Assembly (NCBI GenBank): GCA_020633125.1
Contig: JACKEH010000003.1
Location: 27,084-91,083 of the forward strand
Length of the DNA: 64,000 nucleotides
Direction: 5' to 3'
Source: Sandaracinus sp.
GTDB taxonomy: Bacteria; Myxococcota_A; Polyangia; Polyangiales; Houyiibacteriaceae
The first letter of the stretch is position 1, and every line of letters begins with the position of its first letter. The position numbers and the translations under genes are program-made. Positions 10,416 through 38,789 of the stretch are shown here, in pieces. A model generated the notes under the pieces. That model saw only the letters and a list, made by a program, of their open reading frames with translations. It was not told where the DNA came from and ran no database searches.

Positions 10416-10545
10416 GCGACGCGGTTGCACCTGTCGCGAAGCGCGGCTTCCGACGAGGGGATGGTGAAGTCCGTCGGCGTCGATCCGTGCTGACCGCACG
10501 AAATGAGCGCCTCGTGACGCATTGCGTCTTCGCGAGGCGGACGAG

Positions 10546-10962: not shown

Positions 10963-11081
10963 GCCTGCCTCGCCGCGCGAACGTTCTCGACCTCGTCGAC
11001 GAGCCCTGCTTCGGTCAACGCGCGCTCCAAGGCGTCGAGGGCCTCACGCACTCCGACTTCGGGAAATAGGGCCAAGACCAA
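10959..11081 (-). CDS. Possible 40-aa small ORF (TTG start)
   Basis: It is too short to appear in the ORF track. The sequence AGGAGcggTTG leads into LVLALFPEVGVREALDALERALTEAGLVDEVENVRAARQA. Its stop overlaps the next ATG as ATGA (10959-10962). Confidence 0.2.
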   Translation of the reverse strand: MVLALFPEVGVREALDALERALTEAGLVDEVENVRAARQA

Positions 11082-11129
11082 CCGCTCCTGGCGAGTGTGG
11101 TCACTTCGACGGTGGCACGACGCGACATG

Positions 11130-11837: not shown

Positions 11838-11956
11838 GGCTCTCCGTCCGGCCAGACGAAGGTCAGGGGGTACGTGGGCGCGTCGGGGGGAAGACTCACG
11901 CGATGCTCCGAGCTCGAGCGCCTTGGGTGCGCACGCGGTCGCGAACGCGCAAGTGC

Positions 11957-12286
11957 TCAATCCAACGCTTCGAACGCCTCGGGATCGAAAGGCGGCCACT
12001 CCCGATCCGCGAAGACGACGCCTTCGACGAAGAGCGCATCCTCGCCGTCTCGGAAGCACGTGAACGAACCTCCGTGGCTCAAGCTCGTGTGCTCGAAGTT
12101 CCAGTCCCACGCGCCGAGCTCGGTCGGTGGCAGCGGGCGGTCGAAACGAATCGTGGTGAGGAACCCGACCACGGTGTCTTCGCGCTCGATCGACACCCAG
12201 CGTGCGGAAGATACGAACGCGAGCAGCGCGGGCTCGTCGCGGAGCATCTGTCGCAGCGCGAAGCGCTCTTCGTCGCCCTTGGTCAT
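11957..12286 (-). CDS. Hypothetical protein, 109 aa
   Basis: The start is ATG 12286 (MTKGDEERF). It overlaps the stop of the upstream oxidoreductase as ATGA (12283-12286). Confidence 0.6.
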   Translation of the reverse strand: MTKGDEERFALRQMLRDEPALLAFVSSARWVSIEREDTVVGFLTTIRFDRPLPPTELGAWDWNFEHTSLSHGGSFTCFRDGEDALFVEGVVFADREWPPFDPEAFEALD

Positions 12287-13569
12287 TGCCAACGCATCGC
12301 GCGGTGCACTCGCGCGGCCCAACGGTCCTGCGAGCGTGGCTCGTCGGGCATGCGGACGTAGAGCGCCGCGACCTGCGCGACCTGGCCGGCGACGCGACCC
12401 AGGCGGCGAGCGAGCGCGGGACGACGCGCGAGCACGCGCGCACCTCGAAGCAGGCCGAGGTCGGGACGCGGCGCGCGCTGGGCGAGCACGCGCATCAAGA
12501 ACGCGTCCGAGAGCACACCCTCGCCGAGCATCGCGCTGGTCTCTTCGAGCGAGAGGTCTTGGGTGAAGCGACGGAAGAGGTCTTGGGTCGCGAGCTGAAG
12601 CCCGAAGCGACGCTGGAACGCGCGTTGGTAGTGTCGGAGGTCGCCCGCGGCGAGCGCGTCGTCGAGCATCCGCGCGGCGACGAGGCCGGTGCCGACGCCC
12701 GAGCCGTGCGCGGAGAAGACCTGGCCCGCGGCGTCGCCCAGCGCCGCGACGCGGCCACGCGCGACGATCGGACGCGGGTAGACGAGCGGGATCGCGCGCG
12801 CGCCGCCGAACTCACGCTCGCCGAGGAAGTCGTGGCGTCGCACGAAGTCGTCGACCACGTGGCGGCCCGAAGGATGGCCGTCGGCGGGAATGGTGCCGGA
12901 GAGCAAGAAGACGCGGTCGCCGTGGCGACGGACGTTGAGGATCGAGTAGCCGCCCGCGACGCCGGCGTAGAGCAGCACGTCGCCGTCTTTCGCGCCGCGC
13001 TCGTCGAAGTACGCGCGTGCGGCGTCGAGGTCACGCACGTGCCGCACCTCTTGCGAGGCCACGCAGGTGTCGCGAGGCGTGGCGTGATGCGGCCCGAGCG
13101 CGTCGACGCCGGCGAGCCCGGACGCGTCGACGAAGTGGCGCGCGACGTAGGTGGTCGAGCCGGTGGTTACCCGCACCTCGTGCCCGCTCGGCGCGACGGC
13201 ACGCACGGCCTCTTCGCCGACGAGCTCCGCCCCCGCGTCACGCGCGGCGTTCTGCAGACGCGCGACCAGCGCGCGCATGTCGACCCCGAGGAACTCCTTC
13301 GGACGCACCTTCCGCATCGGCACGTCGCCCGGCTTCGCTTCGCCCGCGAAGAAGTGCGTCGTGGCCGACTCGTGCCGTTCGTCACCGCTCGGCCGGGCGA
13401 CGCCCGCTTCGTCGAACATCCAGCCCGGCACGTCGTTGATCCACGTCGCGCCCGCGCGCTCGAGGGGACGGCGATCGAGGACCAAGACACGCAGACCACG
13501 CGAGGCGGCCATCCAAGCGAGGGCGGCTCCCGCGGAGCCGGCGCCGGCGACGATCAGGTCGTAGGTCAT
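12283..13569 (-). CDS. FAD-dependent oxidoreductase (geranylgeranyl-reductase/halogenase-like fold)
   Basis: The start was moved to ATG 13569. The N-terminus MTYDLIVAGAGSAGAALA is a GxGxxG dinucleotide-binding motif, and GDAAGQV occurs later. Confidence 0.85.
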   Translation of the reverse strand: MTYDLIVAGAGSAGAALAWMAASRGLRVLVLDRRPLERAGATWINDVPGWMFDEAGVARPSGDERHESATTHFFAGEAKPGDVPMRKVRPKEFLGVDMRALVARLQNAARDAGAELVGEEAVRAVAPSGHEVRVTTGSTTYVARHFVDASGLAGVDALGPHHATPRDTCVASQEVRHVRDLDAARAYFDERGAKDGDVLLYAGVAGGYSILNVRRHGDRVFLLSGTIPADGHPSGRHVVDDFVRRHDFLGEREFGGARAIPLVYPRPIVARGRVAALGDAAGQVFSAHGSGVGTGLVAARMLDDALAAGDLRHYQRAFQRRFGLQLATQDLFRRFTQDLSLEETSAMLGEGVLSDAFLMRVLAQRAPRPDLGLLRGARVLARRPALARRLGRVAGQVAQVAALYVRMPDEPRSQDRWAARVHRAMRWQ

Positions 13570-13832
13570 CGGGGCGGCAAGGTAGCAGGTCGGGGCAAGG
13601 TGCCCCGTCGGCGTCGGTGTCCGTGTCCCTGTGGTTTTCGTCCTCGCGAGCGCGGGTACCGGAACCGCGCTTTGCGCCCCAGAGACAGAGGCCGAGACGG
13701 CGCGTCGCGCCACCGCCGCTTCGCGGCCTCACGGCTTCGCCGACACCGCGCTTCGCGCCACGAACGCCCACGAAACCCTGTCGATTCGTAGCGTAGGCGA
13801 GCCTGAGAAATGGGGGCCGCACGTCCGTGGCC

Positions 13833-14165
13833 GTGTCGCGAAGCGATGTCTCCGTCTCCGAGGTCGCGAAGCGACGGCGGCGCAACGCGACGTCTCCGTC
13901 TCTGTCTCCGAGGTCGCGAAGCGACGGAGTCGCAACGCGACGTCTCCGTCTCTGTCTCCGAGGTCGCGAAGCGACGGAGTCGCAACGCGACGTCTCCGTC
14001 TCTGTCTCCGAGGTCGCGAAGCGACGGAGTCGCAACGCGACGTCTCCGTCTCTGTCTCCGAGGTCGCGAAGCGACGGAGTCGCAACGCGACGTCTCTGTC
14101 TCCGTCGACGTCTCCGTCGTCGCGCAGCGACGTCGTCACGAAGCGACGTCCCCGTCTCCGACGCA
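13833..14165. repeat. 50-bp minisatellite, about 5 full and 2 degenerate units, each with two small hairpins
   Basis: The string aggtcgcgaa recurs at 13861, 13911, 13961, 14011 and 14061. Each unit contains GTCGC-GAA-GCGAC (e.g. 13863-13875), GTCGC-AAC-GCGAC (13929-13941) and GTCTCCGTCTCT. Confidence 0.9.
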
Positions 14166-14174
14166 GCCCCACCC

Positions 14175-15410
14175 TCACGCCTGCGCGAGCCGCTCGCTTC
14201 CCTGCCGCTCCGCGTACGGCACGTACTCCACCTTCGCATCACCGAGCAGCTCCTCGATGATCTTCCGCTGCTGCCCGAGCCCGTGCTTCGCCGCCCAACG
14301 CGTCGCGCCCGGCACCAGGCGCCGCGTGGTCTCGAGCCCGAAGCGACCGAGGGCCAAGAGCGGAAGGAGGCGCCACTGGGGCGCGGCGGGAAGACCGAGG
14401 TCGTCCACCGCCGAATCCCCGAGCGTGTAGCGCGACACCGCGACGCGATGCTGCATGAGCAGGCGCGCGAAGGCGCGCTCGAAGCCGTTCTTCGCGACCC
14501 GCTCCGGCAGCTCGTGAAGCGCGAGCGCGAGCGCGCGGCTGTCGTCGTCGGCGTAGGGGTTGGTCGCGCTGTGGATGTACGTCTGGCGTAGCCCGTCGCG
14601 GTAGTCGTGTGCGAGCAACGCGTCGTCCGCGCCGAGCACGTGGCCGACGTAGCGCCACAGATGCATCACCGCGTCACGCTCGTTCGGCGTGAAGTGGAAG
14701 CCGAGCATCGTCAGGCCGATCAGGAAGACCGCGCTGAACTCGAGCTGCGTGGCCGCCGTGTCGGCCTGGTTGATTGGCACGCCCCACGCCGCCGTGTCCC
14801 AGTCGGGGCTGCGTCGCAACGAACGACGCACCGTCGCGTGCATCAGACGCACGCGGCACGCGCTCTTGAAGCCCGCGCTGAAGCGGTCGAGCGTCTCCGA
14901 CTCCATGACGTCGAGCACGAACCGCGAGGTCTCCGCGATGCGGCGCACGACCATGCGATCGAGCGCGCCGGTGCGTGCGAGCGGCTTCACGGCGGCGGCG
15001 CTTCGGTAGCCGCCCATCAACGCCATCGCGCTCAAGATCGTCCCCGACGCGTTGCCAGGTCGCCATTGCGTGTGGCAGCCGAGACGTAGCGCGTCGCGGT
15101 CGAGCCACTCGGGCGGATGCTCGAGCGGCTCGAACCAATGCGCGAGCGGCTCGGGCGGGCTCGGCACCGCGACCAATCCCCCTTCGACCACCCGCTCGAA
15201 GAGCACGCGCGGACGTTGATGTGCGTTGTTCGCCGCCCACTCGACGAACGCGTCGGCGATCGGATCCGCCTGCATCAACCCGTCGCGCAGACGCAGCACG
15301 TCGGGGTCGTTCGGTTGGACCTCGAACCCGCCCAGCTTGGCGAGACGACGCAAACGAGGCGGAGGGTTGGCGAGACGTTGGCCCTGCCAGCGAGTCGGGA
15401 TCTCGGTCAT
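14175..15410 (-). CDS. DUF2236 / MpaB-family oxygenase-like protein
   Basis: This 411-aa ORF has the architecture I recognise from the MpaB/rubber-oxygenase-like family (…RVRLMHATVRRSL…INQADTAATQLEF…). No HMM was run to confirm this. Confidence 0.75.
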   Translation of the reverse strand: MTEIPTRWQGQRLANPPPRLRRLAKLGGFEVQPNDPDVLRLRDGLMQADPIADAFVEWAANNAHQRPRVLFERVVEGGLVAVPSPPEPLAHWFEPLEHPPEWLDRDALRLGCHTQWRPGNASGTILSAMALMGGYRSAAAVKPLARTGALDRMVVRRIAETSRFVLDVMESETLDRFSAGFKSACRVRLMHATVRRSLRRSPDWDTAAWGVPINQADTAATQLEFSAVFLIGLTMLGFHFTPNERDAVMHLWRYVGHVLGADDALLAHDYRDGLRQTYIHSATNPYADDDSRALALALHELPERVAKNGFERAFARLLMQHRVAVSRYTLGDSAVDDLGLPAAPQWRLLPLLALGRFGLETTRRLVPGATRWAAKHGLGQQRKIIEELLGDAKVEYVPYAERQGSERLAQA

Positions 15411-25824: not shown

Positions 25825-26445
25825 TCACTCCAGGGCTTCGCGCCGCTGGAAGATCTCCGCGTTGCGCTCGATCTGCCGGAGGTCGCGGCTCGCGACGTCG
25901 CGCTCGTGATCCAGGGCCTCGGTCCGCCAGACGAAGCCCCACCACTGCCCCTCCCGCTGCCGGTAGAAGCGCAGCTCCCGGTCTCGGGAGGTCTTCACGA
26001 CGAGCACCTCCCCCTCCCGATGCTGCTCGACCGGGGCCCCGACCGACTCCATCAGGTCGTCCCGGCAGGCCCGGTCGCAGCGACGCGCGAAGAGTGCATC
26101 CGGGCTCTCGGCCTGCGCCCCGTCGCCGAGCTCCGCGAGCGCCTCGGCCCGCGCGTCTTCCGGGTAGCGCGTGCGAACGATCTCCGCGGCGGCCCGGCGA
26201 TCGGCGTGAATGGAGATCAGCGCGTGGCGCGAACGTTCGTCGAGAAGTCGGTAGAGGCGCTCGCCCTGGTCGGCCTCCAGGGCCTGGGCCATGTAGGCCA
26301 ACGCGCCCTCGAGCTCCCGCGGGTCCGGGGTCTGGTCACAGGACGCCCAAAAGAGCGCCGCGGCGAGAAGCGCCGTCTTTCGGCATCCTTGGCTTGACAG
26401 GCCGGCTCTCCACGACAGAACCTTCGAACGGTTCCGAGCCCCCAT
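25825..26445 (-). CDS. Lipoprotein, about 206 aa
   Basis: It has a lipobox (LFWASCDQ). Candidate ATGs are at 26445 and 26454, and both overlap the divergent PP2C start. Confidence 0.5.
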   Translation of the reverse strand: MGARNRSKVLSWRAGLSSQGCRKTALLAAALFWASCDQTPDPRELEGALAYMAQALEADQGERLYRLLDERSRHALISIHADRRAAAEIVRTRYPEDARAEALAELGDGAQAESPDALFARRCDRACRDDLMESVGAPVEQHREGEVLVVKTSRDRELRFYRQREGQWWGFVWRTEALDHERDVASRDLRQIERNAEIFQRREALE

Positions 26446-27211
26446 GAACTTCATCGCGGCAGGTCTATCGGACGTCGGGCTCCAGCGCGAGCACAACGAA
26501 GACAGCTTCGTGATCCTCGCGGAGCACCGGCTCTTCGTCGTCGCGGACGGCATGGGCGGCCATCGGGCCGGCGACGTCGCGAGCAAGATGGCGACCCACG
26601 CCATCGCGCAATTCTTCCAGGCCACGGCCAGCGAAGACGCGACGTGGCCCTTCAGCTTCGACCCTCACCTCTCGGTCGACGAAAATCGGCTGGTCACGGG
26701 CATCAAGCTCGCGAACCGGAAGATCTTCGAGGCCTCGGTGAAGCACCGTGAGGTGCACGGCATGGGCACCACGGTCGTGGCCTGCCTCTTCTCCAAGGAG
26801 AAGGGCAAGGTCTACGTGGCCCACGTGGGCGACAGCCGGGCCTACCGGATTCGGGATGGGGAAATCACCCAGCTCACGAGGGACCATTCCCTGGTCAACG
26901 ACTACCTGCTCGTGATGCCCGACATGACGGAGGAGCAGCGCGAGGAGCTGCCCAAGAACGTCATCACGCGAGCCCTGGGCATGCAGGACTCGGTCGCGGT
27001 GGACATGGTCCCCGACGAGCCGAAGCCGGGCGACGTCTACGTGCTCTGCTCGGACGGCCTCAGCGGCATGATCACCGACGAGGCCATCGCCAAGATCGTC
27101 GGCGACGCGAACGACGACGTCGAGAAGGCCGCCCGGGAGCTGATCCAGTCGGCGAACCAGAACGGCGGCGACGACAACATCACCGTCGCGGTCATTCGTT
27201 TCACCGAGTGA
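26444..27211 (+). CDS. PP2C-family Ser/Thr protein phosphatase
   Basis: It has the motifs GLQREHNEDS, VVADGMGGHRAGDVAS, CSDGLSG and GGDDNITV. Confidence 0.9.
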   Translation: MNFIAAGLSDVGLQREHNEDSFVILAEHRLFVVADGMGGHRAGDVASKMATHAIAQFFQATASEDATWPFSFDPHLSVDENRLVTGIKLANRKIFEASVKHREVHGMGTTVVACLFSKEKGKVYVAHVGDSRAYRIRDGEITQLTRDHSLVNDYLLVMPDMTEEQREELPKNVITRALGMQDSVAVDMVPDEPKPGDVYVLCSDGLSGMITDEAIAKIVGDANDDVEKAARELIQSANQNGGDDNITVAVIRFTE

Positions 27212-27233: not shown

Positions 27234-27797
27234 GTGAAGGCGTCCCTGAAGCTGGGGTTCATCGGAACCCACGGCGTCGGAAAGACCACGCTCTGCTACG
27301 GGCTCGCGGCGCGGCTCAAGGCGCGCGACGTGGTGCTCGACATCGTGCACGAGGTCGCGCGCCGCTGCCCGCTTCCGATCAACGAGCACACGAGCCTCGC
27401 GGCGCAGTCCTGGATCCTGCACACACAGGTCGCGGACGAGCTCGTCGCGTCGGCCCGGCACCCGGTCGTGCTCTGCGACCGCAGCGTGCTCGACAACTAC
27501 GTCTACCTGCTCTTGTCGGCGGGACGGCAACCCGGGCTCGAAGCGCTCGTGAGCTGGTGGCTCTCGACCTACGACCTGCTGGTCTACGTGCCGATCGTCG
27601 ACGGGCCCCGCGCAGACGGCATGCGCTCGACCGACCCGGTCTTTCAGCGCGCGGTGGACGAACGCCTGCTCCGAGAGCTCGACGCGCGTGGCGTGAACGT
27701 GTTGCGCCTCGACCCTTCGGCGCGCGAGCGATGGCTCGACGTGGTCGAAGAAGACGTCTTCGGACGCCTCGACGACGGCCAGCTCCCGCTGCTTTGA
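27234..27797 (+). CDS. P-loop NTPase (AAA_28/NadR-kinase-like)
   Basis: It uses a GTG start and has a Walker A motif (GTHGVGKTT) and a Walker B-like motif (VVLCDRS). Confidence 0.7.
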   Translation: MKASLKLGFIGTHGVGKTTLCYGLAARLKARDVVLDIVHEVARRCPLPINEHTSLAAQSWILHTQVADELVASARHPVVLCDRSVLDNYVYLLLSAGRQPGLEALVSWWLSTYDLLVYVPIVDGPRADGMRSTDPVFQRAVDERLLRELDARGVNVLRLDPSARERWLDVVEEDVFGRLDDGQLPLL

Positions 27798-27856: not shown

Positions 27857-28964
27857 TCATTCGGTCGCGACGCGCAGCTGCTGCTCGACGATCGTCCACA
27901 CCGCGCCCGCGTCCGTCGTCACGTCGTCCGCGTCGCCGTCGAAGCGAAGGCAGAAGCTGGTGCGCAGCACGTCGCGAATCTGGTCGTCGGTGCCACCGCC
28001 GAAACGCGGATGCGCGAGGTAGGTGCACGCTTCGTCGGTCGCACGCACCGAGAGCCCCGAGCCGACCTCCGGCGAGCGGCGGACCGCGTCGGCCACGAGC
28101 ACCACACGCTCGATCACCTTGGTCGGCATCCGCGTGGCGACGCTTGAGGATCTTCACCTCCTCGGCCGGCGGCGGGTAGCCCATGCGAAGCGGCGCGAAG
28201 CGGTCGAGCTGCGCGGCGTCGAGGCCGAAGGTCGCGCTGAACTGTCGTCCGCGGTTCACCGCGGCCACGAACTGCACGTGATCGGGGATCGCGACGAAGC
28301 GGTTCTCGATCGGATGAAAGACCCGACGCGTGCTGTCGAGCGCGGGCATGAGCGCGTTGCGCGCGGCTTCGGGGCAACGGTTGAGCTCGTCGAGGAACAC
28401 GAGCACCGGACGCTCCGAGCTCGCGGCGCGCTCGACCGCTTCGAGGATCTCCGTCTTCACGAAGTCCGTGACCGGCGCGCCGCTCTCGGAGGCGCGCACC
28501 TGAATGGTCGCGAAGAAGTCGCTCGCGTCGACGACCGCGCCGCAGTTGAAGAACACGAACTCCATGCCGAGCTGCGTGGCGACGGCGCGCGCGAGCGTGG
28601 TCTTGCCGCAGCCTTGGGGACCGTCGAGCAAGATGTTCATCCCACTCTCGAGCAAGACCTCGAGCTTTCGCGCCACGCTCGGATCGAGCCATACGCCTTC
28701 GATGCGAAAGGCCGCGGCGCGCTCCCACACCACCTCGACGTGGCCGTGGGTGTCGCTCTCCGGTTTTCCGACGTGCACGACACGCACGACGCACGGCACG
28801 CCGGCTTGAATGCGCGCGTCGTCGCTGAGCACGACCTTCGGCGTGCGGCGTCCGTCGAGCTGGGTCGTGCGCCAACGAAAGCGCGAGCCGGGGGCGTCGT
28901 TCTCGAGGAAGGTGGCCTCGAAAGTGCGGCCGGGAGCGAGGTCGTCGAGGGCGAGGCGGGTCAT
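27857..28964 (-). pseudogene. MoxR/AAA_5-type AAA+ ATPase interrupted by a 1-nt frameshift near 28127-28140
   Basis: Frame A runs from ATG 28964 and has Walker A (GPQGCGKTT) and Walker B (VLVFLDELNR), reaching ...YPPPAEEVKILKRRH. The lid-domain continuation (PTKVIERVVLVADAVRRSPEVGSGLSVRA…) lies in the +1 frame as ORF 27857..28129. Frame A then continues only as Arg-rich shadow to 27201. Confidence 0.7.
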
Positions 28965-29020: not shown

Positions 29021-32000
29021 TCAGGTGGCGCCGATCGTCTGGCGCACGAGGCGTGCGATGATGGTGCCGAAGCGACGCACGGACTCCTCCGTGCTGAGGT
29101 CGCGCACCTCGACGTAGTGGTCGAAGCAGCGCTCTTCGAGCGGGCGCACCGCGATCTGCGCGCACGCCATGCCTTCACGCGTCAGCCGTCGCACCAAGCC
29201 GCGCAGCGCCGCCACCGAGCACTCGGTCGGAAGGCCGTCGCTGATCATCACGAGCAGCTTCGCGCGACGTCCGGAGCGACGCGCGAGCTCGGCCACGTGC
29301 GCGAGCGCCGCCGCGTCGTTGTTGCCGCCGCTCGCTTGCAACGACGCCGCCGCCGAACGGTCCGCGTCGCCCGCGTCGAAGAGCTGCGTGTGGGTGAACC
29401 CGAAGACACGCAGGTCGACGCCACGCAGGCCGCGGGCGCTCTCCGCGAGCAACACCGCGAAGCGGCGCGCGAGCTCCATGCTCTGACCGACCATCGAGCC
29501 GGAGCAGTCCACCGCGACGCCGAGGAAGAGATCGGCCCGAGGCTCGAGCACCCGCGTCTGCATCACGTGGGGATCGCCGCGCAGCACGAGACCACGCAAG
29601 CGCGGGCGGTCGAGCCGCGTGCCGGCGAGACGTGCACCGACGGAGACCCGCGCGAGCCCGAGCGCTTCGAGATCGGCGCGAAGGCGCCGCGACGCGCGCA
29701 TGACCTCTTGCGCGAGCGCACGCTGCGCGACCGGATCGGGCGGCAGACGGACCACGTTGCGAATCGGGTCGAAGCCTTGGTCGGCGCCGACGTTGATCTG
29801 CAAGCGGCTCCCTCCGCGCGGCGTGCCCGATCCCTGCGACGAGGGCGGCGCGAGGATTCGCTCGACCTCGCGCTGCACCTCGTCGTCGGAGATGCCTTCG
29901 CGCCGTTCGACCGCGTTGGGGTCGTCGCCCGGAAGCTCTTCGGGCGTGCCCACGCAGCGAAGCATCTGTGCTTCGTGACCGAAGAGCGCCGCGAGCTTCA
30001 GCGTGAGGTCGTAGAGCGCCTTCGTGTCGAGGTCCTTGAAGCCCCGATCGAAGTACGAGAGCGCCTCGGCCACGAGCGGGTCGGCGTCGCGGTCACCCAT
30101 GCCCATGCGCAGCGCTCGAACGAAACGCGCGAAGGAGCTCCCCGACGCGCTGGACGCGCGAAGCAGCTCGCCGCTCGAGACGTGCACCGACGCGATGTCG
30201 AAGGAGGGCTTCACGTTTCCGATCAGCAGGAGCACGGAGCGCGGACCGAGCGCGCCGAGGAGCACGACGGGCGAGAGGTCGCGCCCCGAATGTTGGAACG
30301 CGTACGCCGCGAGGCGCTTGAGACGGTCGCCGTCCGCGCGATCGCGGGCGCGCAGGCGACGCTCGAGGTGCTCGTCGAGCACGAGGTTGTAGAGGTGCTG
30401 CAAACCGGCAGCGCCGGCTTTGCCCCAAAGCTCACGCGAGGCCGGATCCGAGTGGTAGACCTGGTGACCGAGCTCGTGCAGCACGAGCCCTTCGACGACG
30501 TCGCGACCTCGCAACGCGTTGTCGAAGACGGGCCAACCCGCGACGTGAATGACGTTGCTGCCGAGCTGGGTGTGGCCGAGGTTGCGGCGCTCGCTGATGA
30601 GGCGAATGCGGAAGAGACGCCCCGTGAGCTCACGCCCACGCCGCACGCCCCACGCGAAGAGCTCCCCGAGGGTGCGTAGCTTGTCGCGACGCGAGGGGCG
30701 GTCCGGGTCGTAGAGCTCGTCGGTCGCCGACGCGCGCACCCCCGCGTCGCGCGCTTGCAGGAGCTTCAGCGCGAGCGCGGCACGTTCGTCGTCGGCGAGA
30801 TGCGGGTCTTGAAAGACGACGGTCGCCGCCGCGAGCTCGGCTTCGCGCGTGCCGACCGCGAGGGCGCCTTCCACCAGCACGTCGAGTGGCACGCGAAACC
30901 AAGGACGCGGCTCGCGTCGCGCGATCACGTCGGCAACCAGCAAGGGCATGCCGAGGTCGTCGTCGAGGCGATCGAGGGCACGTGCGGCGTCGAGGCGAAG
31001 GTCGGCGAGCCGCTCGGTGCCGAGCTCCAGGAACGCGACGAGCGCAGCGCGGGCCTCGTCGTCGGTGGGCGCGTCGTCGGTTCCGCCGCGATCGATGCAG
31101 AGACGGACCGCCGGCGCGTACGCGTCCGGATGCGGCGAGACCGTGAGCGCGCAGGCGAAACGACGGGGCCCGAGTCGCGCGAGGAGCTTCTCGGTGTCCG
31201 ACGACTCCATCCAGCTCGCGCCGTCCAAGCGCGCGCAGGCAGCTTCCACCGCGACCTCCGGTGCGTCGAGCTCGAGCGCGAGGTGAAAACGGGTGGCGGG
31301 ATTCACGTACGCGAGCGGCGCACGGAGCCGCTCGCGATCGACGTGGCTGAAGAGCGCCGCGAAGCGCGCGACGTGGATCGCGTGGGGGACGCTGCTTCGA
31401 AGGCAGTGCAGGAGTCGCTCCTCGCCGACTTCGCCGAGCTCGAAGAGCCGCTGCACGGCCTCCTCGGCGAACTGGCGCACGGGGTCGGCCAACGTCGCTT
31501 CGAGAAACGGGAGGTCGGTGCTCTTTCGAATCGCCGCGAGGCGCGCGTCGACGTCGGCGAAGGTGCGATCCGACGTCGCTTTCGGCGGCAGGCCCTCGAG
31601 CTTCGCGTAGCTCGAGAGCACCGCGCGTGTGTTCTCGGCGAGCTTGGGCAAGAGGCCCTTCACCTTCGCGTGGCGTGCCCGAAAGCCGTCTTCGCCGACG
31701 CCGGCTTCGAAGAGCCCCATGAAGAGACGCGCCGCCGGGACGCCGAGGTCGCTGTCGAAGGTGTCGACGAGGAGGTCGAGCAGGGCGTCGGTCGCGAGAG
31801 GCGCGAGGCGGCCGCGTCGATGCCAATGGCAGAGGGCGACCGCGCGCGCGACCGCCGACCACACGAGGCGCCGTGCGAGCACGGACCGGGTTTGACGGAT
31901 GGCGCCGAGACGCGCCGCGAACTGCGCGTCGCCGAGCACGTCGAGGGTCGCGTAGGCGTGCGTCTCCCAACGGGAGAGCGCGGCGTGGCCGAGCAACGTG

Positions 32001-33901
32001 AGGCCCGTGCGACCTGCGAAGCGCGCGACGTCGGTGCGCACGAGCTCTTCGAAGGCGGGCGACGCGTCGCCTTCGAAACGCGCGAGCTGCGCGGCGACGT
32101 CGCCGTGAAAGTCGCCGCTCACGAGCAGCCACGAGCAGGCGCGGACGCTCGGCTCCGGAAGACGACGCGCGAGCACGGCGGCGAGCCCGAGCGGCGGGGT
32201 ACGCAGGCGTCCGAGCACGGCGCCGAGATCGGGCGCCGTCACGATCGCTTCACGCGTCGCTTCGTCGAGCGTGGTGGTGCCGGTCGGCGCGGGCGGCGGC
32301 GGCTTGGGCAGACGTGGCGTCGCCCACGCGCTTCGTGCCGGCTCGGCGTGATCCTTCCAACGCAGCGCCAGCGTGCGCTCGACCGCGAAAGGGAACGTCG
32401 TCGCTTCGCCGATGCGCGCCGCGAGATGGGCGCCGTCCGGAGCGCCGTCGAGCACATCCGCAACCGCGTCTCCGAAACGCCGCCCGAGCGCGCCGAGGAA
32501 ACGGTCGTCGAGCGTGCCGAGGGCTTCGGCGGTCGCGGCGCGCACGAGCGTGAGGAGGTCGGCTTCCGCGACGTGCTCCGCGAGCCGCTCCGCGAGACGG
32601 TTCGCGCGTTTGGGTTTGACCGGGGCGCCACGCACGAAGATCAGCAATCGCTCGACGACCGACGCGTACCCCTCGCGTTTGGCTTCCACCGCGAGCGCAT
32701 CACGAAGCTTCGGATCGGCGACGCTCGCTGCGAGCAAGGTGATCGCGCGTGCATCGAACGCCGCTTCGGGACGGCGGCGCGCGAGCTCGTCGATGAACCA
32801 CGCGCGGTCGCGCTTGCCGCTCGCGGGGTTCTCGTAGAGGCGCGCGACGACGCCGGGCTCGGCCAACACGGCCTCCGCGACCTCGTCGAATCCGAACGCG
32901 TCGACGAGCACGCCGTAGGGCGACTCGGGGTGCAGCGCGAGGATCGAGAGGACGGCGGCGAGGTCGAGCGCACCCGCGCGGGGACCGTCGGTGTGACGCG
33001 CGAGCGGCCCCGCGAGCAGGCGCATCGCGAGCGGCTTGCGGCTGGACACCGCGGGCAGGAGCACGTGCTGGAGCGCGACCTCACGAAGGATGGCGCGACG
33101 CTCCTCGAGCGGCTCGGCGTCGTCGACGAAGTAGTGCGCGTCGAAGCCCGCGAACAACACGGTGAGCGCACGATCGGGACGTTTGGCCCGCTCGTCCCGA
33201 AGGATCGCGAGGCCTCCGACCGGGCTCTGCCGCACCAGCTGCCACACGCGTTGCCCGAGCAAGATCCGCTGATGCGGCTCGGCGCCCTCGAACATGTCGA
33301 AGAGCCACGCCCAGAGGGCGGCCGGCTCTCGCAGCGGCGGGTAGTCCTTCGCTTCGTTGCCGATCGCGTGCGTGAGCGCGAAGTTCCGAACCTCCGCGCG
33401 TGGAATCCAGCCTTCGGTCGCGAAGACGTGAAGGTAGGGCAGCATCGGCGTCGGCGGCCGCATGCCCGGCGGCACCGCGTCGCGCACCTCGGGGTCCGCG
33501 CGAAGGGCAAAGCAGATCGGCGCCGTGTCGGGCGTCGGCCAAACGAGCGCGGCGCGGCGCACGTCGACGCGGGCGTGAAGCAACGCGTACGCGAGCCGCG
33601 CCGGATGCGGCGACGCGCGAAGCGTGGACACCGCCTCGACGCGCACGTCAGGGTCGGGGTCGTCGAGCGCCGCGATCACGGCCTCTTCGACGGCTTGGCC
33701 CCGCATGCCGGCGAGACAGCGCAGCGCGATTCGCCGCCACGCCGGATCGGCGTCCGCGAGCAGCGGAACGAGCTCCGACACGAACGCGACGCGCTGCGGC
33801 GCCGGGCCACTGCGCCAGCTGCCCGAGCGTCGCGAGGTCGTCGGGATCACGGCGACCGGCGCGTAGGTTTCGATGGAGAACGACGTCGCGCATCGGCGCA
33901 C
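29021..33901 (-). CDS. Giant (about 1626 aa) HEAT-like repeat / HExxH / vWA protein
   Basis: The real part of ORF 29021..34657 begins near GTG 33901; the upstream 252 codons only translate the microsatellite. The N-terminus has HEAT-like repeats (IAALDDPDPDVRVEAV). An HELGH motif sits at 30464-30478. The C-terminal vWA domain has a MIDAS motif, DCSGS (VAVDCSGSM…SDG). Confidence 0.75.
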   Translation of the reverse strand: MRRCATSFSIETYAPVAVIPTTSRRSGSWRSGPAPQRVAFVSELVPLLADADPAWRRIALRCLAGMRGQAVEEAVIAALDDPDPDVRVEAVSTLRASPHPARLAYALLHARVDVRRAALVWPTPDTAPICFALRADPEVRDAVPPGMRPPTPMLPYLHVFATEGWIPRAEVRNFALTHAIGNEAKDYPPLREPAALWAWLFDMFEGAEPHQRILLGQRVWQLVRQSPVGGLAILRDERAKRPDRALTVLFAGFDAHYFVDDAEPLEERRAILREVALQHVLLPAVSSRKPLAMRLLAGPLARHTDGPRAGALDLAAVLSILALHPESPYGVLVDAFGFDEVAEAVLAEPGVVARLYENPASGKRDRAWFIDELARRRPEAAFDARAITLLAASVADPKLRDALAVEAKREGYASVVERLLIFVRGAPVKPKRANRLAERLAEHVAEADLLTLVRAATAEALGTLDDRFLGALGRRFGDAVADVLDGAPDGAHLAARIGEATTFPFAVERTLALRWKDHAEPARSAWATPRLPKPPPPAPTGTTTLDEATREAIVTAPDLGAVLGRLRTPPLGLAAVLARRLPEPSVRACSWLLVSGDFHGDVAAQLARFEGDASPAFEELVRTDVARFAGRTGLTLLGHAALSRWETHAYATLDVLGDAQFAARLGAIRQTRSVLARRLVWSAVARAVALCHWHRRGRLAPLATDALLDLLVDTFDSDLGVPAARLFMGLFEAGVGEDGFRARHAKVKGLLPKLAENTRAVLSSYAKLEGLPPKATSDRTFADVDARLAAIRKSTDLPFLEATLADPVRQFAEEAVQRLFELGEVGEERLLHCLRSSVPHAIHVARFAALFSHVDRERLRAPLAYVNPATRFHLALELDAPEVAVEAACARLDGASWMESSDTEKLLARLGPRRFACALTVSPHPDAYAPAVRLCIDRGGTDDAPTDDEARAALVAFLELGTERLADLRLDAARALDRLDDDLGMPLLVADVIARREPRPWFRVPLDVLVEGALAVGTREAELAAATVVFQDPHLADDERAALALKLLQARDAGVRASATDELYDPDRPSRRDKLRTLGELFAWGVRRGRELTGRLFRIRLISERRNLGHTQLGSNVIHVAGWPVFDNALRGRDVVEGLVLHELGHQVYHSDPASRELWGKAGAAGLQHLYNLVLDEHLERRLRARDRADGDRLKRLAAYAFQHSGRDLSPVVLLGALGPRSVLLLIGNVKPSFDIASVHVSSGELLRASSASGSSFARFVRALRMGMGDRDADPLVAEALSYFDRGFKDLDTKALYDLTLKLAALFGHEAQMLRCVGTPEELPGDDPNAVERREGISDDEVQREVERILAPPSSQGSGTPRGGSRLQINVGADQGFDPIRNVVRLPPDPVAQRALAQEVMRASRRLRADLEALGLARVSVGARLAGTRLDRPRLRGLVLRGDPHVMQTRVLEPRADLFLGVAVDCSGSMVGQSMELARRFAVLLAESARGLRGVDLRVFGFTHTQLFDAGDADRSAAASLQASGGNNDAAALAHVAELARRSGRRAKLLVMISDGLPTECSVAALRGLVRRLTREGMACAQIAVRPLEERCFDHYVEVRDLSTEESVRRFGTIIARLVRQTIGAT

Positions 33902-33942
33902 CGGTGAGGGTCGGGGAAAGGAGGGGAAGGAAGCAGGAATTG

Positions 33943-34230
33943 GAGACGGTGACGGTGACGGTGACGGTGACGGTGACGGGAGACAGGGACGGGACGGAGA
34001 CAGAGACGGGGACGGAGGAGACGGAGACGGAGACGGAGACGGACGGAGACGGAGACGGAGACGGAGACGGAGACGGAGACGGAGACGGAGACGGAGACGG
34101 AGACGGAGACGGAGACGGAGACGGAGACGGAGACGGAGACGGAGACGGAGACGGAGACGGAGACGGAGACGGAGACGGAGACGGAGACGGAGACGGTGAC
34201 CGAGTCGGAGTCGGGACGGTGTCGGATACC
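33943..34230. repeat. (GACGGT)n then a near-perfect (GGAGAC)n array of about 25 units
   Basis: The repeats are directly visible. A perfect hexamer run extends from about 34047 to 34196, 40-330 bp upstream of the giant gene start. Confidence 0.95.
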
Positions 34231-35159
34231 CAGACGGAGCCGGCGGAGTCGCAAACGCTCGACCACGTCGCCCGAGTCGGCGCGCAGGCCAAGGCCGAGC
34301 ACCGACACCCCACGTACACGTCATCCCGACACTCGCGTCACTCCCACTGCGACGAACATGGTCCGGGTTTCGAAAGGGGCGACCAGCCCCTTCGCCGCGG
34401 AGCACCGCAGGAGACGACCGGAGCGAAGCGAAGCGAGGCTCCGAGGCACGGAGGGGAAGGGGGAGGCAGAGCCTCCCCAAGCGGGCGGTAGGCGCGCAGG
34501 CGAAGCCGAGCACCGCAGCCCTGCACACCGCCCGCAGCCCTGCACACCGCCGCCGCTCGCGATCCATCGATCCCACTCTCGCGCCCACGAGCCGTGTGCC
34601 GAAGCATGAAGGCTCGCCGTGGAGGCGAAGACGGTTGCCGAGGGGAGTGGGTGGCAAGCCACCGTGGGTTCACGAAGGCGATCGCTCGCTCGTTCGCCGA
34701 AGCGAACGTCCCGCTGGATGCTCCCGGCACGGCGAGCCGTGCGCGGGTGGACGAGGAGCATCCGGGTACCGCGCCAGGCGGCTCCCACCGGAGAAGCCCT
34801 CGTGACGACGCGGTCTTCGGTGGCGCCTTCCGAAGAAGACGCCGGGCACGTCCTCGCGCTCCGAAGAACGCGACCACGCACCGAATCACCCCTGGCTCGC
34901 GCGACGAACGCGCGATCGATGGACCCCGAGCGGAGGCCGTGACGATCACCGAGTGATCGCTCGCAGGACCGACGTCTTCGATCACGACACACGAAGCGCG
35001 TCGAAAACGAAGGCGGGGGTCAGTCGCTCGTGGCGCCTCCGAAGTCGGAGGGGACGCGAGCGCGGCTGGTGCTCGAGAGCGTTTCTCTCATGTGCGTCGT
35101 CCCTCCTTTCGTGGAGGCGCGGGACTGGTAAGTCGCGAGGAAGGAGGGTCAAGGGAAGG

Positions 35160-35790
35160 ATTGGCGATCGGTGGCCCTGGCGTTGGCGCTGGCGGTGGCT
35201 GTGGCGGTGGCGCTGGCGGCGACGGTGACGGTGGCGCTGGCGTTGGCGCGCTGACCTCGGCTTCGCCGAGACCGTGGCAGAGACCGAGACGGCTGCGTTG
35301 CAGCCACCGCCGCTTCACGGCCTCCTCGGCTTCGCCGTGACCGCTGCTGCGCAGCCTCCGCCGCTTCGCGGCCTCCTCGGCTCGGCCGAGACCGCTACAC
35401 GGCCGCTGCGCAGCCTCCGCTTGGCGGCCTCCGTCGCGCGAATCGCCGGGACGCGCAGCGTGAACTCCGTCTCAGCTCCGTCGCGCGAAGCGCGGGGACG
35501 CGCAGCGTCGACTCCGTCTCTGCCTCCGTCGCGCGAAGCGCGGGGACGCGCAGCGTCTGCCTCCGTCGCGCGAAGCGCGGGGACGCGCAGCGTCGTCCCC
35601 GCCTCTGGCTCCGTCGCGCGAAGCGCGGGGACGCGAAGCGTCGTCTCCGTCTCTGCCTCCGTCGCGCGAAGCGCGGGGACGCGCAGCGTCGTCTCCGACT
35701 CTGCCTCCGTCTCCGACTCTGCCTCCGTCTCCGACTCTGCCTCCGTCTCCGTCTCCGTCGCCGTCTCCGGGCACGGGCACGGGCACGCAA
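35160..35790. repeat. Composite repeat block: GGTGGCG-type 6-mers, inverted copy of the 19.4-kb hairpin repeat, six 34-bp double-hairpin units, (GTCTCCGACTCTGCCTCC)3 and (GGCACG)3
   Basis: Hairpins lie at 35256-70, 35292-304, 35343-55, 35360-72 and 35376-90. The unit CTCCGTCGCGCGAAGCGCGGGGACGCGCAGCGTC occurs six times between about 35430 and 35690. Confidence 0.9.
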
Positions 35791-35888
35791 TCCACACGAA
35801 ACAACCCCTCCCCGTCCCCGGACCCACCTTCCCCGATCGTCCTTCCCCGCGTAACGCTGCGTTCCACCGACGCGACGGGGCGCGGCAC

Positions 35889-36932
35889 ATGAACGCCACG
35901 AAGATCGTCATCCACCGCGCGGGCTCGTACGACCAGCTCCGCGTCGAGTCCCACCCCGCACCGAAGCCGAAGGCCGGCGAGGTCGCCATCGACGTGAAGG
36001 CGACCGGCGTGAACTACGCCGACGTCATCGTGCGCATGGGCCTCTACGCCTCCGCGAAGGAGCTCGTCGGTTGGCCCATCACGCCCGGCTTCGAGGTCGC
36101 CGGCGTCGTGCGCGAGCTCGGCGAGGGCGTGACGGACCTGAAGGTCGGCGACCGTGTGATCGCGGGGTTGCTCTTCGGCGGTTACGCGAGCTCGGTCGTC
36201 GCGCCGAGCACGCAGGTGTGGAAGCTCCCCGAGGCGCTCTCGTTCGAACAAGGCGCCGGCATTCCTGCCGTCTACCTCACGGGCTGGTTCGCGCTTCACT
36301 TCCTCGCGCACCCGCGCAAGGGCGATCGCGTGCTCGTGCACAGCGCCGCGGGCGGGGTCGGCTCCGTGCTCGTGCAGATGGCCAAGCGCGTCGGCTGCGA
36401 GGTCACCGGCGTCGTCGGTCGCACCGAGAAGGTCGCGGTCGCGCGCGCGCTCGGCTGCGATCACGTCATCGACAAGTCGAAGGAAGACCTCTGGGCCCGC
36501 GCGAAGGCGATCGCCCCGAAGGGCTTCGACCTCGCGCTCGACGCGAACGGCGTCGAGACGCTCAAGCACAGCTACGACCACCTGCGCCCGGCCGGCAAGC
36601 TCGTCGTCTACGGCTTCTCCACGATGATGCCGAAGACCGGCGGCAAGCCGAACTACCTCAAGCTCGCCGCGGATTGGATTCGCACGCCGCGCTTCAACCC
36701 GCTCGATCTGACGAACCAGAGCAAGAGCGTCCTGGCCTTCAACCTCAGCTACCTCTTCGATCGGATGGACCTGCTCGGCGCCGCGATGGACGACGTGCTC
36801 GCGTGGATCGAGAACGGCGAGCTGAAGCCGCCCGCGACCACGACCTTCCCGCTCTCCCAGGTGGCCGACGCGCACAAGCACATCGAGTCGGGCAAGAGCA
36901 CCGGCAAGCTCATCCTCCTTCCTCAGGCTTGA
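35889..36932 (+). CDS. MDR-family NADPH:quinone oxidoreductase / zinc-type alcohol dehydrogenase-like protein
   Basis: The start is ATG 35889. The 347-aa product has the motifs GVNYADV…PGFEVAGVV…HSAAGGVGS. Confidence 0.88.
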   Translation: MNATKIVIHRAGSYDQLRVESHPAPKPKAGEVAIDVKATGVNYADVIVRMGLYASAKELVGWPITPGFEVAGVVRELGEGVTDLKVGDRVIAGLLFGGYASSVVAPSTQVWKLPEALSFEQGAGIPAVYLTGWFALHFLAHPRKGDRVLVHSAAGGVGSVLVQMAKRVGCEVTGVVGRTEKVAVARALGCDHVIDKSKEDLWARAKAIAPKGFDLALDANGVETLKHSYDHLRPAGKLVVYGFSTMMPKTGGKPNYLKLAADWIRTPRFNPLDLTNQSKSVLAFNLSYLFDRMDLLGAAMDDVLAWIENGELKPPATTTFPLSQVADAHKHIESGKSTGKLILLPQA

Positions 36933-37028
36933 ACCGAGCTGCGACGATCGGCCTCGCGCGGTAACGTGCGAGGTCGGCGCAGCGACTCTCCCGACACGTC
37001 CGAAAGCTCACGAAGACCCCTCGTTCGA

Positions 37029-38789
37029 ATGGACACGCCCCCCGAGAAGAAGCGCCGCGGCTTTCGTCGCATCACGAGCGTCGTCTCGCTCGTGAGCCCC
37101 TACGCGGGGCGCTTCGTCGCCGCGACGATCTTCCTCGTCTTCGGGAGCGGCATCGGGCTCGTCTACCCGAAGGCCGTGCAATGGGCGGTCGATCGTGGCC
37201 TCGCCGACGGCAACCTCGCGCTCCTCGATCAGGTCGCCTTCGCGCTCATCGGCGCGTTCTTGCTGCAGGCGGTCTTCACCTGGCTGCGCCACTACCACAT
37301 GAGCTGGCTCGGCGAGCGCGCCGTCACCGACCTCCGCCGCCGCGTGATCGGTCACCTCGTTCGCCTACCGCCCGAGTGGTTCCACGAGCGCCGCACCGGC
37401 GAGCTCGTCGGTCGCATCGCCGGTGACGTGACCATCCTCGAAGGCGTCGTCGGCACCGAGCTCTCGATGGCGCTGCGCAACCTCGTGCAGCTCGTCGGTG
37501 GCGTGGTCCTGCTCGCGATCACCGATCCCTGGCTGACCCTCGCGATGCTCGGCGTCGTGCCGCCGCTCTCGATCGGCATGATGCTCTTCGGCAAACGCAT
37601 TCGCGCGATGAGCAAGGGCCTGCAAGACGCAGCCGCCGACGCGAGCGGCCGCGTGCAAGAGGTCCTCGGCGCGATCACCACCGTGCAGGCCTTTCGCCGC
37701 GAAGACGCCGAGTCCGCGCGCTACGGCGAAGCGGTCGAGCACGTCTTCTCGCGCGCGCTCCGCCTCGCGCGTTGGCGCGCGACCTTCTTCGCGACCTCCT
37801 CGCTCGGCGGCTTCCTCGCCATCGGCATCGTGATCTGGCTCGGCGGCCGACGCGTCGCCGCGGGCGAGCTCTCCGGCGGCGGGCTCACCGCGTTCTTGCT
37901 CTACACGACCATCGTCGCGGTCGCGCTCGCGAGCCTCACCTCGCTCTGGGGCAGCCTTCAGCGCGCGGCCGGTGCGACCGAGCGACTTCAAGAGATCCTC
38001 GACACCGTTCCGTCGATCGCGAGCCCGGACGACACGGCGCCCTTCCCCGCCGAGCCGCGACGCATCGCCTTCGAGGGCGCGCGTTTCGCGTACCCCTCAC
38101 GCCCCGACGTCGAGGTGCTCGCGGGCATCGACCTGCAGGTGGAGCCGGGCGAGACGATCGCGCTCGTGGGCCCCAGCGGCGCCGGCAAGACGACCCTGAC
38201 CGCGCTCGTGCCACGCTTCTACGACGTGACCGCCGGTCGCGTGCGTGTGGGCGGGGTGGACGTGCGCGAGCTCGACCTCGAGCAGCTCCGCGCGTGCATC
38301 GCGATGGTGCCGCAGGATCCCGTGCTCTTCTCCGGGTCGGTCGCGGAGAACATCGCGTACGGCCGGCCGGGCGCGACCCAGGCGCAGATCGAAGACGCCG
38401 CGAGAAAGGCCAACGCCCACGCGTTCGTGAGCGCGTTCCCGGAAGGCTACGGCACGCTCTGCGGCGAGCGAGGCGTGCAGCTCTCGGGCGGGCAGCGGCA
38501 GCGCATCGCGATCGCGCGCGCGATTCTGGCCGATCCGCAGATCCTGATCCTCGACGAGGCGACCAGCAGCCTCGACGCGGAGAGCGAAGCGCTCGTTCAA
38601 GAAGCGCTCGGCACGTTGATGAAGGGCCGCACCACGCTCGTGATCGCGCACCGCCTGAGCACAGTGCGCGAAGCGGATCGCATCGTCGTGCTGCAAGACG
38701 GACGTGTGGTCGAGGTCGGCAAACACACCGAGCTGCTCTCGCACGACGGCGTCTACAAACGCCTCGTCGAGCATCAGCTCGCGGCATGA
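37029..38789 (+). CDS. ABC transporter, fused permease/ATPase (MsbA/multidrug-exporter type)
   Basis: It has 6 TM helices, Walker A (GPSGAGKTT), the ABC signature (LSGGQRQRIAIARA) and Walker B (ILILDEATSSLD). The start is ATG 37029, with GTG 36966 as an alternative. Confidence 0.9.
   Translation: MDTPPEKKRRGFRRITSVVSLVSPYAGRFVAATIFLVFGSGIGLVYPKAVQWAVDRGLADGNLALLDQVAFALIGAFLLQAVFTWLRHYHMSWLGERAVTDLRRRVIGHLVRLPPEWFHERRTGELVGRIAGDVTILEGVVGTELSMALRNLVQLVGGVVLLAITDPWLTLAMLGVVPPLSIGMMLFGKRIRAMSKGLQDAAADASGRVQEVLGAITTVQAFRREDAESARYGEAVEHVFSRALRLARWRATFFATSSLGGFLAIGIVIWLGGRRVAAGELSGGGLTAFLLYTTIVAVALASLTSLWGSLQRAAGATERLQEILDTVPSIASPDDTAPFPAEPRRIAFEGARFAYPSRPDVEVLAGIDLQVEPGETIALVGPSGAGKTTLTALVPRFYDVTAGRVRVGGVDVRELDLEQLRACIAMVPQDPVLFSGSVAENIAYGRPGATQAQIEDAARKANAHAFVSAFPEGYGTLCGERGVQLSGGQRQRIAIARAILADPQILILDEATSSLDAESEALVQEALGTLMKGRTTLVIAHRLSTVREADRIVVLQDGRVVEVGKHTELLSHDGVYKRLVEHQLAA

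Follow-up and report, generated by a model that had tools for sequence, protein, structure and literature searches.

Locus organization

The DNA analysed here, referred to as the window, is a 64,000 nt stretch of a Sandaracinus sp. genome (assembly GCA_020633125.1, contig JACKEH010000003.1, positions 27,084 to 91,083) with a G+C content of ~70 %. On its minus strand lies a gene for a giant protein that ends in a von Willebrand factor A (vWA) domain, followed 56 nt downstream by the start of a gene for an AAA_5 ATPase of the MoxR/CobS/NorQ type. The two products are interpreted as a motor and its adaptor, of the MoxR-type AAA+/vWA class to which CobS-CobT, NorQ-NorD, CbbQ-CbbO and Rea1 belong. 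This pair is distinguished by the giant size of its adaptor, an intact HExxH motif in the adaptor's N-domain, the reversed gene order (vWA gene first, then ATPase gene) and an extra N-domain on the motor. [quoted passage not shown]

Pairs of a MoxR-type AAA+ protein and a vWA protein are widespread, and clients or mechanisms are known for only a few of them. The structures of NorQD and CobST, published in 2026, were the first of such complexes. The family described here adds a well-populated, strict two-gene variant, in which the adaptor has both a complete zinc-protease motif and a very large presumed client-binding region. Coordinates of the individual features are collected in Table 1.

Table 1. 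Features of the giant adaptor gene, the ATPase gene and the region upstream, in window coordinates
Feature	Position	Strand	Remarks
AAA_5 (MoxR/CobS/NorQ-type) ATPase gene	27857..28964	-	ATG 28964, stop 27857; 369 aa with 2 nt restored
ATPase N-domain	28665..28964	-	~100 residues, strongly conserved; no Pfam match even at E ≤ 10
Giant adaptor gene	29021..33893	-	1,623 aa once the extra base near 33803 is removed
vWA domain with MIDAS	29024..29533	-	DCSGS 29495-29509, GGNND 29315-29329, ISDG 29234-29245 (SDG 29234-29242)
Candidate 'finger/shaft' (LARVSVGARLAGTRLDRPRLRGLVLRGDPHVMQTRVLEPRA)	29534..29656	-	41 residues, conserved, Arg-rich; its alignment to CobT takes in the shaft Q373-R413
Short strand and long helix before the vWA domain	29657..29758	-	predicted strand 323-326 and helix 331-356; equivalent to beta0-alpha0'-alpha0 of CobT_C
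Acidic/Gly-rich linker, mostly disordered	29759..29938	-	predicted pLDDT < 50 at module residues 262-275 and 293-316
Short acidic helix EVQREVERIL (DDEVQREVERIL) in the linker	29852..29887	-	module helix 280-291; E286, V287, E288 and R289 invariant
Zincin-like domain	29939..30724	-	helix, three-stranded sheet, HExxH helix, about 8 helices
NLVLDEHLER, acidic/His motif	30359..30388	-	on a helix 34 residues after HExxH
HELGHQVYH (HExxHxxxH)	30452..30478	-	putative active-site helix; HExxH itself 30464-30478
N-terminal extension, about aa 120-1059	30725..33544	-	no Pfam match; weakly conserved
HEAT-repeat match, the sole significant one	33545..33778	-	aa 42-119 (1,626-aa numbering), Pfam HEAT_2
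Hexanucleotide microsatellite	33942..34243	GGAGAC (+), CCGTCT (gene strand)	86 % matches over ~51 copies; its end is 49 nt upstream of the giant start codon

Gene models and frameshifts

The open reading frame (ORF) of the giant gene is open on the minus strand from 34657 to a stop codon at 29021–29023, and its translation 5′ of ~33900 is microsatellite read-through (RLRLRL.../SPSPSP...). The N-terminus MRDVVLHRNLRxGRR is common to all of the first-pass homologues (14/14), and the corresponding start codon in the window is ATG 33893, in a frame that differs from the rest of the gene. The 1,626-aa gene model proposed earlier, which began at GTG 33901, is therefore replaced by one of 1,623 aa. 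As assembled, the ~30 leading codons (MRDVVLHRNLRAGRRDPDDLATLGQLAQWP) are out of frame. The window carries an extra G near 33803 relative to a metagenome-assembled genome (MAG) of the Polyangiales (GCA_041389665.1; 96.8 % identity to the window across 8.5 kb), and deletion of one base within 33798–33807 restores the single ORF. A frameshift somewhere near 33800–33900 had been suspected in the earlier note, correctly. A second frameshift, absent from that note, is a 2 nt deletion in the ATPase gene at 28128/28129 relative to the same MAG; the restored product is collinear with its orthologues. Neither lesion is present in the MAG.

The MAG has its own irregularities. About 17 small indels fall within ~320 bp of its vWA-coding region (window 29277–29600; MAG locus 14294–14604), and its annotated giant homologue (1,536 aa) ends in a garbled vWA domain and C-terminus. 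The indel cluster is a sign of a low-quality stretch of that public assembly, and assemblies of this group are thus indel-prone. Between window and MAG, the giant gene shows 84.5 synonymous and 50.5 non-synonymous differences (omega, the ratio of non-synonymous to synonymous rates, 0.21) and the ATPase gene 28 and 2 (omega ~0.02); the ATPase is under strong purifying selection. Given selection on both genes since the two strains split, together with the indel-prone assemblies, the frameshifts in the window most probably reflect errors of assembly or lesions of very recent origin and are treated as such. A plot of third-position G+C content by phase, made for further frameshifts, was too noisy for use.

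If the +1 frameshift in the giant gene (codon ~30) and the −2 frameshift in the ATPase gene were real, both genes would be dead in this genome as recent pseudogenes. The two lesions do stand in the sequence as given, and their occurrence in functionally linked genes would fit relaxed selection following a first hit. However, zero further stops are found across about 1,590 + 290 codons, the omega values against the close relative do not favour decay, both lesions sit in G/C-rich runs, and the indel cluster elsewhere in the MAG's own copy points to the assemblies. Loss of the pair is thus somewhat unlikely, and it would concern this copy only and not the family.

The C-terminal adaptor module

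The last 567 residues of the giant protein (1060–1626 in the 1,626-aa numbering) were modelled with AlphaFold 2 (AF2) at a predicted local distance difference test (pLDDT) score of 75.6. In the model, a zincin-like domain is followed by a mostly disordered linker, a short strand with a long helix, a candidate finger and the vWA domain. This order of elements is the published order for both CobT and NorD, so the module is predicted to follow the CobT/NorD adaptor plan. In CobT, an N-terminal domain (CobT_N; a helix, a three-stranded sheet and 8 helices, "resembling the peptidase M48 subfamily C domain") binds the CobS lid and is succeeded by a disordered linker, beta0-alpha0′-alpha0, a "shaft" (Q373–R413) and a vWA domain with the MIDAS residues D-S-S-N-D (bioRxiv 10.64898/2026.07.21.739949). 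According to excerpts of the NorQD reports, the N-domain of NorD docks on the lid of the AAA+ protein, the flexible linker is essential, and a finger of the vWA domain sits in the pore (PMC13036017, PMC9976466).

The giant protein has what is expected of the vWA partner in a MoxR-type pair, a C-terminal vWA domain with a conserved MIDAS; the SDG of the MIDAS is present in 134/134 family representatives. By Pfam the domain is marginal in the window protein, with VWA at 23.7 bits (cut-off 23.8) and CobT_C at 18.2 bits (cut-off 21), the latter being matched in 13 of 15 family members. A profile of the vWA and pre-vWA region searched against the PDB gives CobT (21vt_A, 1.5e-7) as its best solved sequence relative, with an ISDG-P motif common to both. 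By structure, the best Foldseek match of the vWA model is the NorD vWA domain (9qhd_G, 1e-7), and the Rea1 MIDAS domain is second (5.7e-7).

The alignment of hidden Markov models to CobT (9uka_G) begins at the strand-helix element. Within the candidate finger, which follows that element, R365, G368, D372, R375, R382 and R391 are invariant. In the model, the adaptor N-domain is set off from the vWA domain by the flexible linker, and the conserved acidic helix within this linker could conceivably serve for docking or, within the same molecule, act as a pseudo-ligand of the MIDAS. A novel peptidase-vWA fusion is not what the module amounts to; the zincin-like domain, linker, candidate finger and vWA domain make up the standard CobT/NorD adaptor unit. 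What is unusual about the giant protein is the ~1,050-aa extension added to a known unit and the retention of the HExxH motif.

The ATPase

Judged by its sequence, the ATPase carries every catalytic AAA+ motif, the 2 nt deletion of the window copy notwithstanding. It is a single-module protein of the AAA_5/helix-2-insert branch, and its AAA_5 match in Pfam has an E-value of 1.8e-14. Walker A (GPQGCGKT) lies at 28599–28622 and the Walker B DE at 28386–28391, and the motifs GPQGCGKT, FLDELNR, AAVNRG, QLDRF and SVRAT (Walker A/B, sensor 1, Arg finger, sensor 2) are invariant in 15 orthologues. Among PDB entries, the ATPase profile matches Midasin (5e-20), CbbQ (1e-6), NorQ (3e-6) and CobS (1e-5). 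A special link to Midasin was considered and rejected, since this region of Midasin is matched still more strongly by a bona fide CobS (1e-30); the similarity to Midasin is thus a trait of the AAA_5 branch.

The N-domain of the ATPase has invariant residues throughout in the same 15 orthologues (F19, N22, S27, R32, P42-K43, G55, C58, G74, G90 and D94). NorQ chains (268–270 residues; CobS has 328) align from approximately position 105 of the ATPase and so have no counterpart of this domain.

Distribution and gene linkage

A search of 1.84 billion cluster representatives with a profile built on the C-terminal 567 residues of the giant protein recovered 425 proteins at E ≤ 1e-30, that is, the family comprises at least 425 clusters at 50 % identity. 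Of the top 150 representatives, most have a length of 1,600–1,800 aa and match from end to end. Those that are shorter are presumably fragmentary, and all 150 have a uniform architecture. A scan with one genome per species yielded 169 relatives. By record title, these belong overwhelmingly to the Myxococcota, namely to the Polyangia group (Sandaracinaceae, Nannocystaceae, Kofleriaceae, Haliangiales and Polyangiaceae), and cultured members include Plesiocystis pacifica SIR-1 and Minicystis rosea DSM 24000. MAGs labelled Planctomycetota, a label taken as given, account for 8 of the 80 matches listed out of the 169.

By tblastn, 73 of 83 loci have the ATPase gene on the same strand downstream of the giant gene, at a distance that is mostly below 100 bp and with an amino acid identity of 57–71 % outside the closest relatives. 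Clustering of all ORFs likewise recovers the pair in 75 of 84 loci and finds no third conserved gene in any consistent association across these 84. The giant protein and the ATPase thus constitute a strict two-gene module in neighbourhoods that are varying and ordinary, and the loss of synteny among related genomes that the earlier note had named as a reason for doubt was not borne out.

Full-text literature searches found no description of the family, and no Pfam, NCBIfam or PADLOC model covers it. In NCBIfam the giant protein has no family and the ATPase only far sub-threshold matches. NCBI names giant homologues 'HEAT repeat domain-containing protein', a label that hides a CobT-like adaptor.

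The uniform two-gene makeup also bears on whether the pair could be a conflict, defence or signalling system of the vWA-MoxR type, as the earlier note had suggested, with the giant protein as sensor and effector. Such systems are ternary, with an N-terminal vWA domain, variable C-terminal effectors and a third component that is a VMAP, iSTAND, FtsH or beta-propeller protein (Kaur et al. 2020, PMC7159879). Multicellular bacteria, deltaproteobacteria and planctomycetes among them, are enriched in these systems, which sometimes carry HEAT repeats or a metallopeptidase (PMC7159879). However, the vWA domain of the giant protein is C-terminal, its architecture does not vary, a third component is lacking and the bpMoxR model scores 19.3 bits against a cut-off of 27. 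The giant protein has no PADLOC match, the ATPase has only generic P-loop matches there, and the neighbours are metabolic genes. Additionally, the ATPase is under strong purifying selection, and its identity between families (60–70 %) looks vertical and housekeeping-like. A conflict or signalling role is therefore very improbable.

Comparison with known systems

CobS-CobT, the motor and adaptor of the aerobic cobaltochelatase CobNST (PDB 9UKA, 21VT and 21VU), shares with the present pair an AAA_5 motor and the adaptor plan. Pairwise identity to CobS and CobT of S. meliloti is only 23–27 %, and the giant protein, unlike CobT, has no match to Pfam CobT (PF06213). CobT is 631 aa long and has no HExxH motif, whereas the giant protein of 1,623 aa has one. 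In S. meliloti cobS precedes cobT, the reverse of the order found here, and the family ATPase has the extra ~100-aa N-domain relative to CobS. Identity as a cobaltochelatase CobNST was rejected on three counts: no CobN is linked in the 84 loci, the PF06213 match is missing and the identity is at the low level given above. Likewise, the neighbours in the window (AAA_28, PP2C, zinc-type alcohol dehydrogenase and ABC transporter genes) are not a cobalamin context.

NorQ-NorD, an FeB-insertion chaperone for nitric oxide reductase (PDB 9QH6 and 9QHD), resembles the pair both in NorD's vWA domain and in NorQ, which ranks with the best matches of the ATPase over the full module. It differs in size and gene order, and nor genes are absent nearby. 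Zincin likeness of the NorD N-domain is not mentioned in the excerpts of the NorQD reports.

CobS/CobT-like pairs of phages and plasmids are similarly CobN-less. The best PHROG match of the ATPase is the phage CobS-like family phrog_249 ('porphyrin biosynthesis', 7e-24), and phage CobT-like proteins give the best fold match of the zincin-like domain. These phage proteins measure 570–810 aa and are without the ~1,050-aa extension. As a further observation, a gene for a CobT-like vWA protein is located on an Acinetobacter pittii plasmid (NZ_CP069498.1, 75259–76995), and such proteins, mostly annotated as hypothetical, occur on ~146 Acinetobacter and 11 Aeromonas plasmid records (~80–145 kb). They share 28–35 % identity with the vWA/shaft fragment of a solved CobT and represent further CobN-less CobT-like genes.

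Rea1/Midasin shows the same overall logic of a ring, a long helical part, an acidic linker and a MIDAS. It is a single polypeptide of about 4,700–4,900 residues with six fused AAA domains, in contrast to the two-gene pair described here. One stretch of its AAA ring is the best solved match of the ATPase (~895–1067 of 6or5 and ~1030–1203 of other entries).

The HExxH site and possible function

The zincin-like domain, modelled on its own, is predicted with high confidence (AF2 pLDDT 94.4, predicted template modelling score 0.91). Strands 39–43, 50–52 and 58–62 are followed by helix 73–91, which bears H83-E84-x-x-H87. In this model the motif occupies a helix after a three-stranded sheet, the position of a zincin active site; placement in a non-catalytic helix, the outcome that the earlier note had considered damaging, is thus not what the model suggests. 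All family representatives carry HExxH (143/143), and 136/143 have the third histidine (HExxHxxxH). NLVxDEHLER is found in 142/143, with the spacing of 34 residues kept in 130/134; its D117-E118-H119-L-E121 is placed on helix 109–127, which by its sequence is a candidate 'glutamate helix' that would give the third metal ligand. A separate set of 59 domains from genome loci has H83, E84, G86, H87, H91, D117, E118, E121 and R122 invariant. Histidines are unusually frequent around the site, and H83, H87, H88, H91, H119 and H145 are invariant or nearly so. With HExxH in every representative and likewise the MIDAS SDG, these features are not due to chance.

Canonical CobT (full-length S. meliloti CobT from pSymB was used for comparison) has RGLGDSMALR at the equivalent helix and no HExxH; a plasmid CobT-like protein is also without the motif. 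Thus the motif is not needed for the docking role, and in the giant protein it appears to have been kept by selection for something other than docking. The presence of the catalytic glutamate within the motif, its invariance, the invariant DEHLER 34 residues further on and the loss of the motif in canonical CobT are together read as indicating a catalytic zinc site. It may well be, although this reading is tentative, that the site binds zinc and is catalytic and that the machine works as an ATP-gated processing protease or remodeller, with a cytoplasmic client whose gene lies elsewhere.

Several observations weigh against a catalytic site or against the adaptor equivalence on which it draws. 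In Foldseek searches of the PDB, the top 10 matches of the zincin-like domain are all minigluzincins, and the best of them has a non-significant E-value of 0.39. Sequence homology between the zincin-like domain and CobT_N was tried and rejected, with hhalign probabilities of 0.06–0.24 for a 59-sequence profile against CobT_N alignments of 4 and 119 sequences; the equivalence with CobT_N is therefore drawn from fold and architecture. The candidate finger is predicted at low confidence in isolation (pLDDT 32–36). The shaft was likewise unobserved in apo-CobST, and the CobT shaft is visible only when inserted in the ring pore (bioRxiv 10.64898/2026.07.21.739949). Finally, the characterised bacterial relatives cited here are metal-insertion or enzyme-reactivation chaperones and not proteases.

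The minigluzincins and other M48-M56-type zincins (abylysin 4JIU, selecase 4QHF and jannalysin 4JIX) share with the domain a zincin core of sheet, HExxH helix and candidate-ligand helix. The alignments cover 74–109 of 262 columns at E ≥ 0.39, and the domain of the giant protein has about 6 extra helices. Further PDB fold matches, to Wss1, M1 aminopeptidases, the M48-like 3c37, PprI and MATCAP, are not significant either, and no Pfam peptidase family matches the domain even at E ≤ 10. Among predicted viral structures (BFVD), the best matches are the phage CobT-like/VWFA proteins (230–273 columns, query TM-score 0.43–0.53, E 4.5e-4 to 3e-2, probability 1.00), and they extend along the entire domain. 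Those that bear a name are labelled 'Cobalt chelatase, CobT subunit', 'VWFA domain containing protein' or 'Cobalamin biosynthesis protein'. The query did not include the vWA domain, so these matches are to the N-domains of the phage proteins.

This fold-level match to phage CobT-like N-domains, and the binding of the adaptor N-domain to the small AAA+ subdomain in both CobST and NorQD, would also agree with a domain that only docks the ATPase lid. In such a pure remodeller the HExxH would be a structural zinc site or a relic, and specificity would reside in the N-terminal extension and the MIDAS. A relic, however, is not expected to be invariant across at least 143 clusters (≤ 50 % mutual identity, two phyla), nor is DEHLER, and canonical CobT shows docking without the motif. 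A docking-only role is thus distinctly unlikely.

Alternatively, the same machine could be a metal-centre maturation (metal-insertion) chaperone like NorQD, CobST, Mg-chelatase I/D and CoxDE, in which the HExGHHxxH/DEH/H145 cluster would handle metal without cleaving peptides. The excerpts on characterised relatives do describe metal insertion (FeB by NorQD, Co by CobSTN), the closest sequence relative of the vWA domain is CobT, and the wealth of histidines at the site would suit metal handling. Yet simple metal binding would not need the catalytic glutamate, which is invariant in 143/143, no metalloenzyme client or CobN-like subunit is linked, and CobT and the plasmid CobT-like protein work without HExxH. 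Metal insertion is accordingly an unlikely function, if slightly less so than docking alone.

For the ATP-gated processing protease or remodeller favoured here, a working cycle can be proposed by analogy with CobST and NorQD. The ATPase would form a hexameric ring, and the Arg-rich finger would insert into its pore from the concave face. The zincin-like domain would dock on the lid subdomain of one protomer, and ATP hydrolysis would twist or stretch the linker between these two anchor points. The MIDAS may hold an acidic residue of the client, for which the ~1,050-aa N-terminal extension would give specificity.

An unlikely further form of this proposal is that the pair is the first AAA+-gated zincin, with an ancestral and still catalytic CobT/NorD-type N-domain on the lid of a CobS-like ring, and with access of the client (held by the MIDAS and the scaffold) switched by twisting of the linker. 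In that case, the 'M48C-like' N-domains of CobT and its phage relatives would be degenerate descendants of an active protease. Some MoxR-vWA machines would then represent a new architecture of ATP-dependent protease, one unrelated to Lon, FtsH and Clp. The questions that the family raises are whether the adaptor N-domain was originally a protease and whether an AAA+ ring can gate a zincin through an adaptor linker.

The N-terminal extension

The HEAT_2 match near the N-terminus of the giant protein (E 4e-8; 33.9 bits, cut-off 27.7) is found in 13 of 15 family members. Pfam searches with sub-segments of the N-terminal region found nothing past this match, and comparison of segments of the N-terminal ~1,050 aa with hhalign revealed no significant internal repeats (E 0.05–0.44). 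Of the ~1100 aa of helical repeats described in the earlier note, these sequence searches thus support HEAT repeats over about 80 aa. Column conservation is 0.30–0.50 in the extension against 0.5–0.73 in the C-terminal module. The extension presumably acts as a helical scaffold or in client binding. According to the NorQD authors, MoxR-associated vWA proteins differ widely in the length of their N-terminal parts, which probably confer target specificity; the present family is an extreme case of this variable-length part.

Strain divergence, upstream region and neighbouring genes

Divergence between the window and the MAG is mosaic along the giant gene (window 29600–33800, MAG locus 10090–14294). 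The synonymous divergence (dS) is 0.014 over aa 31–560 and rises to 0.22 over aa 561–1055 (76 synonymous and 47 non-synonymous differences). Over aa 1056–1320 there are zero synonymous differences, and dS is not computable. This pattern suggests inter-strain recombination or a chimeric assembly.

The hexanucleotide microsatellite belongs to what is presumably the promoter or leader of the giant gene, outside the sequence that codes for the proteins. The related MAG has 46 copies with other unit variants (CCGTCA/CCGTCT), and the microsatellite holds most of the non-coding indels between the two strains. Length polymorphism at this position in the leader or promoter could have an effect on expression. 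A promoter and terminator scan found no promoter-like sites, and terminator-like sites were at chance level.

Homology between the window and the MAG ends at ~34527, just past the microsatellite, which is a rearrangement breakpoint adjoining the giant gene. Beyond it, the window encodes a zinc-type alcohol dehydrogenase (35274–36932, plus strand) and an ABC transporter (36966–38789, plus strand), and the MAG has isocitrate dehydrogenase and succinyl-CoA ligase genes. On the other side, genes for a PP2C-type protein phosphatase (26444–27211, plus strand) and a small AAA_28 P-loop protein (27234–27797, plus strand) converge on the ATPase gene. These two are also present in the close MAG and are not conserved family-wide. 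Rfam and tRNA scans of the whole window gave no match. At the far end of the window, the G+C content is 0.576 at 62001–64000 compared with ~0.70 elsewhere.

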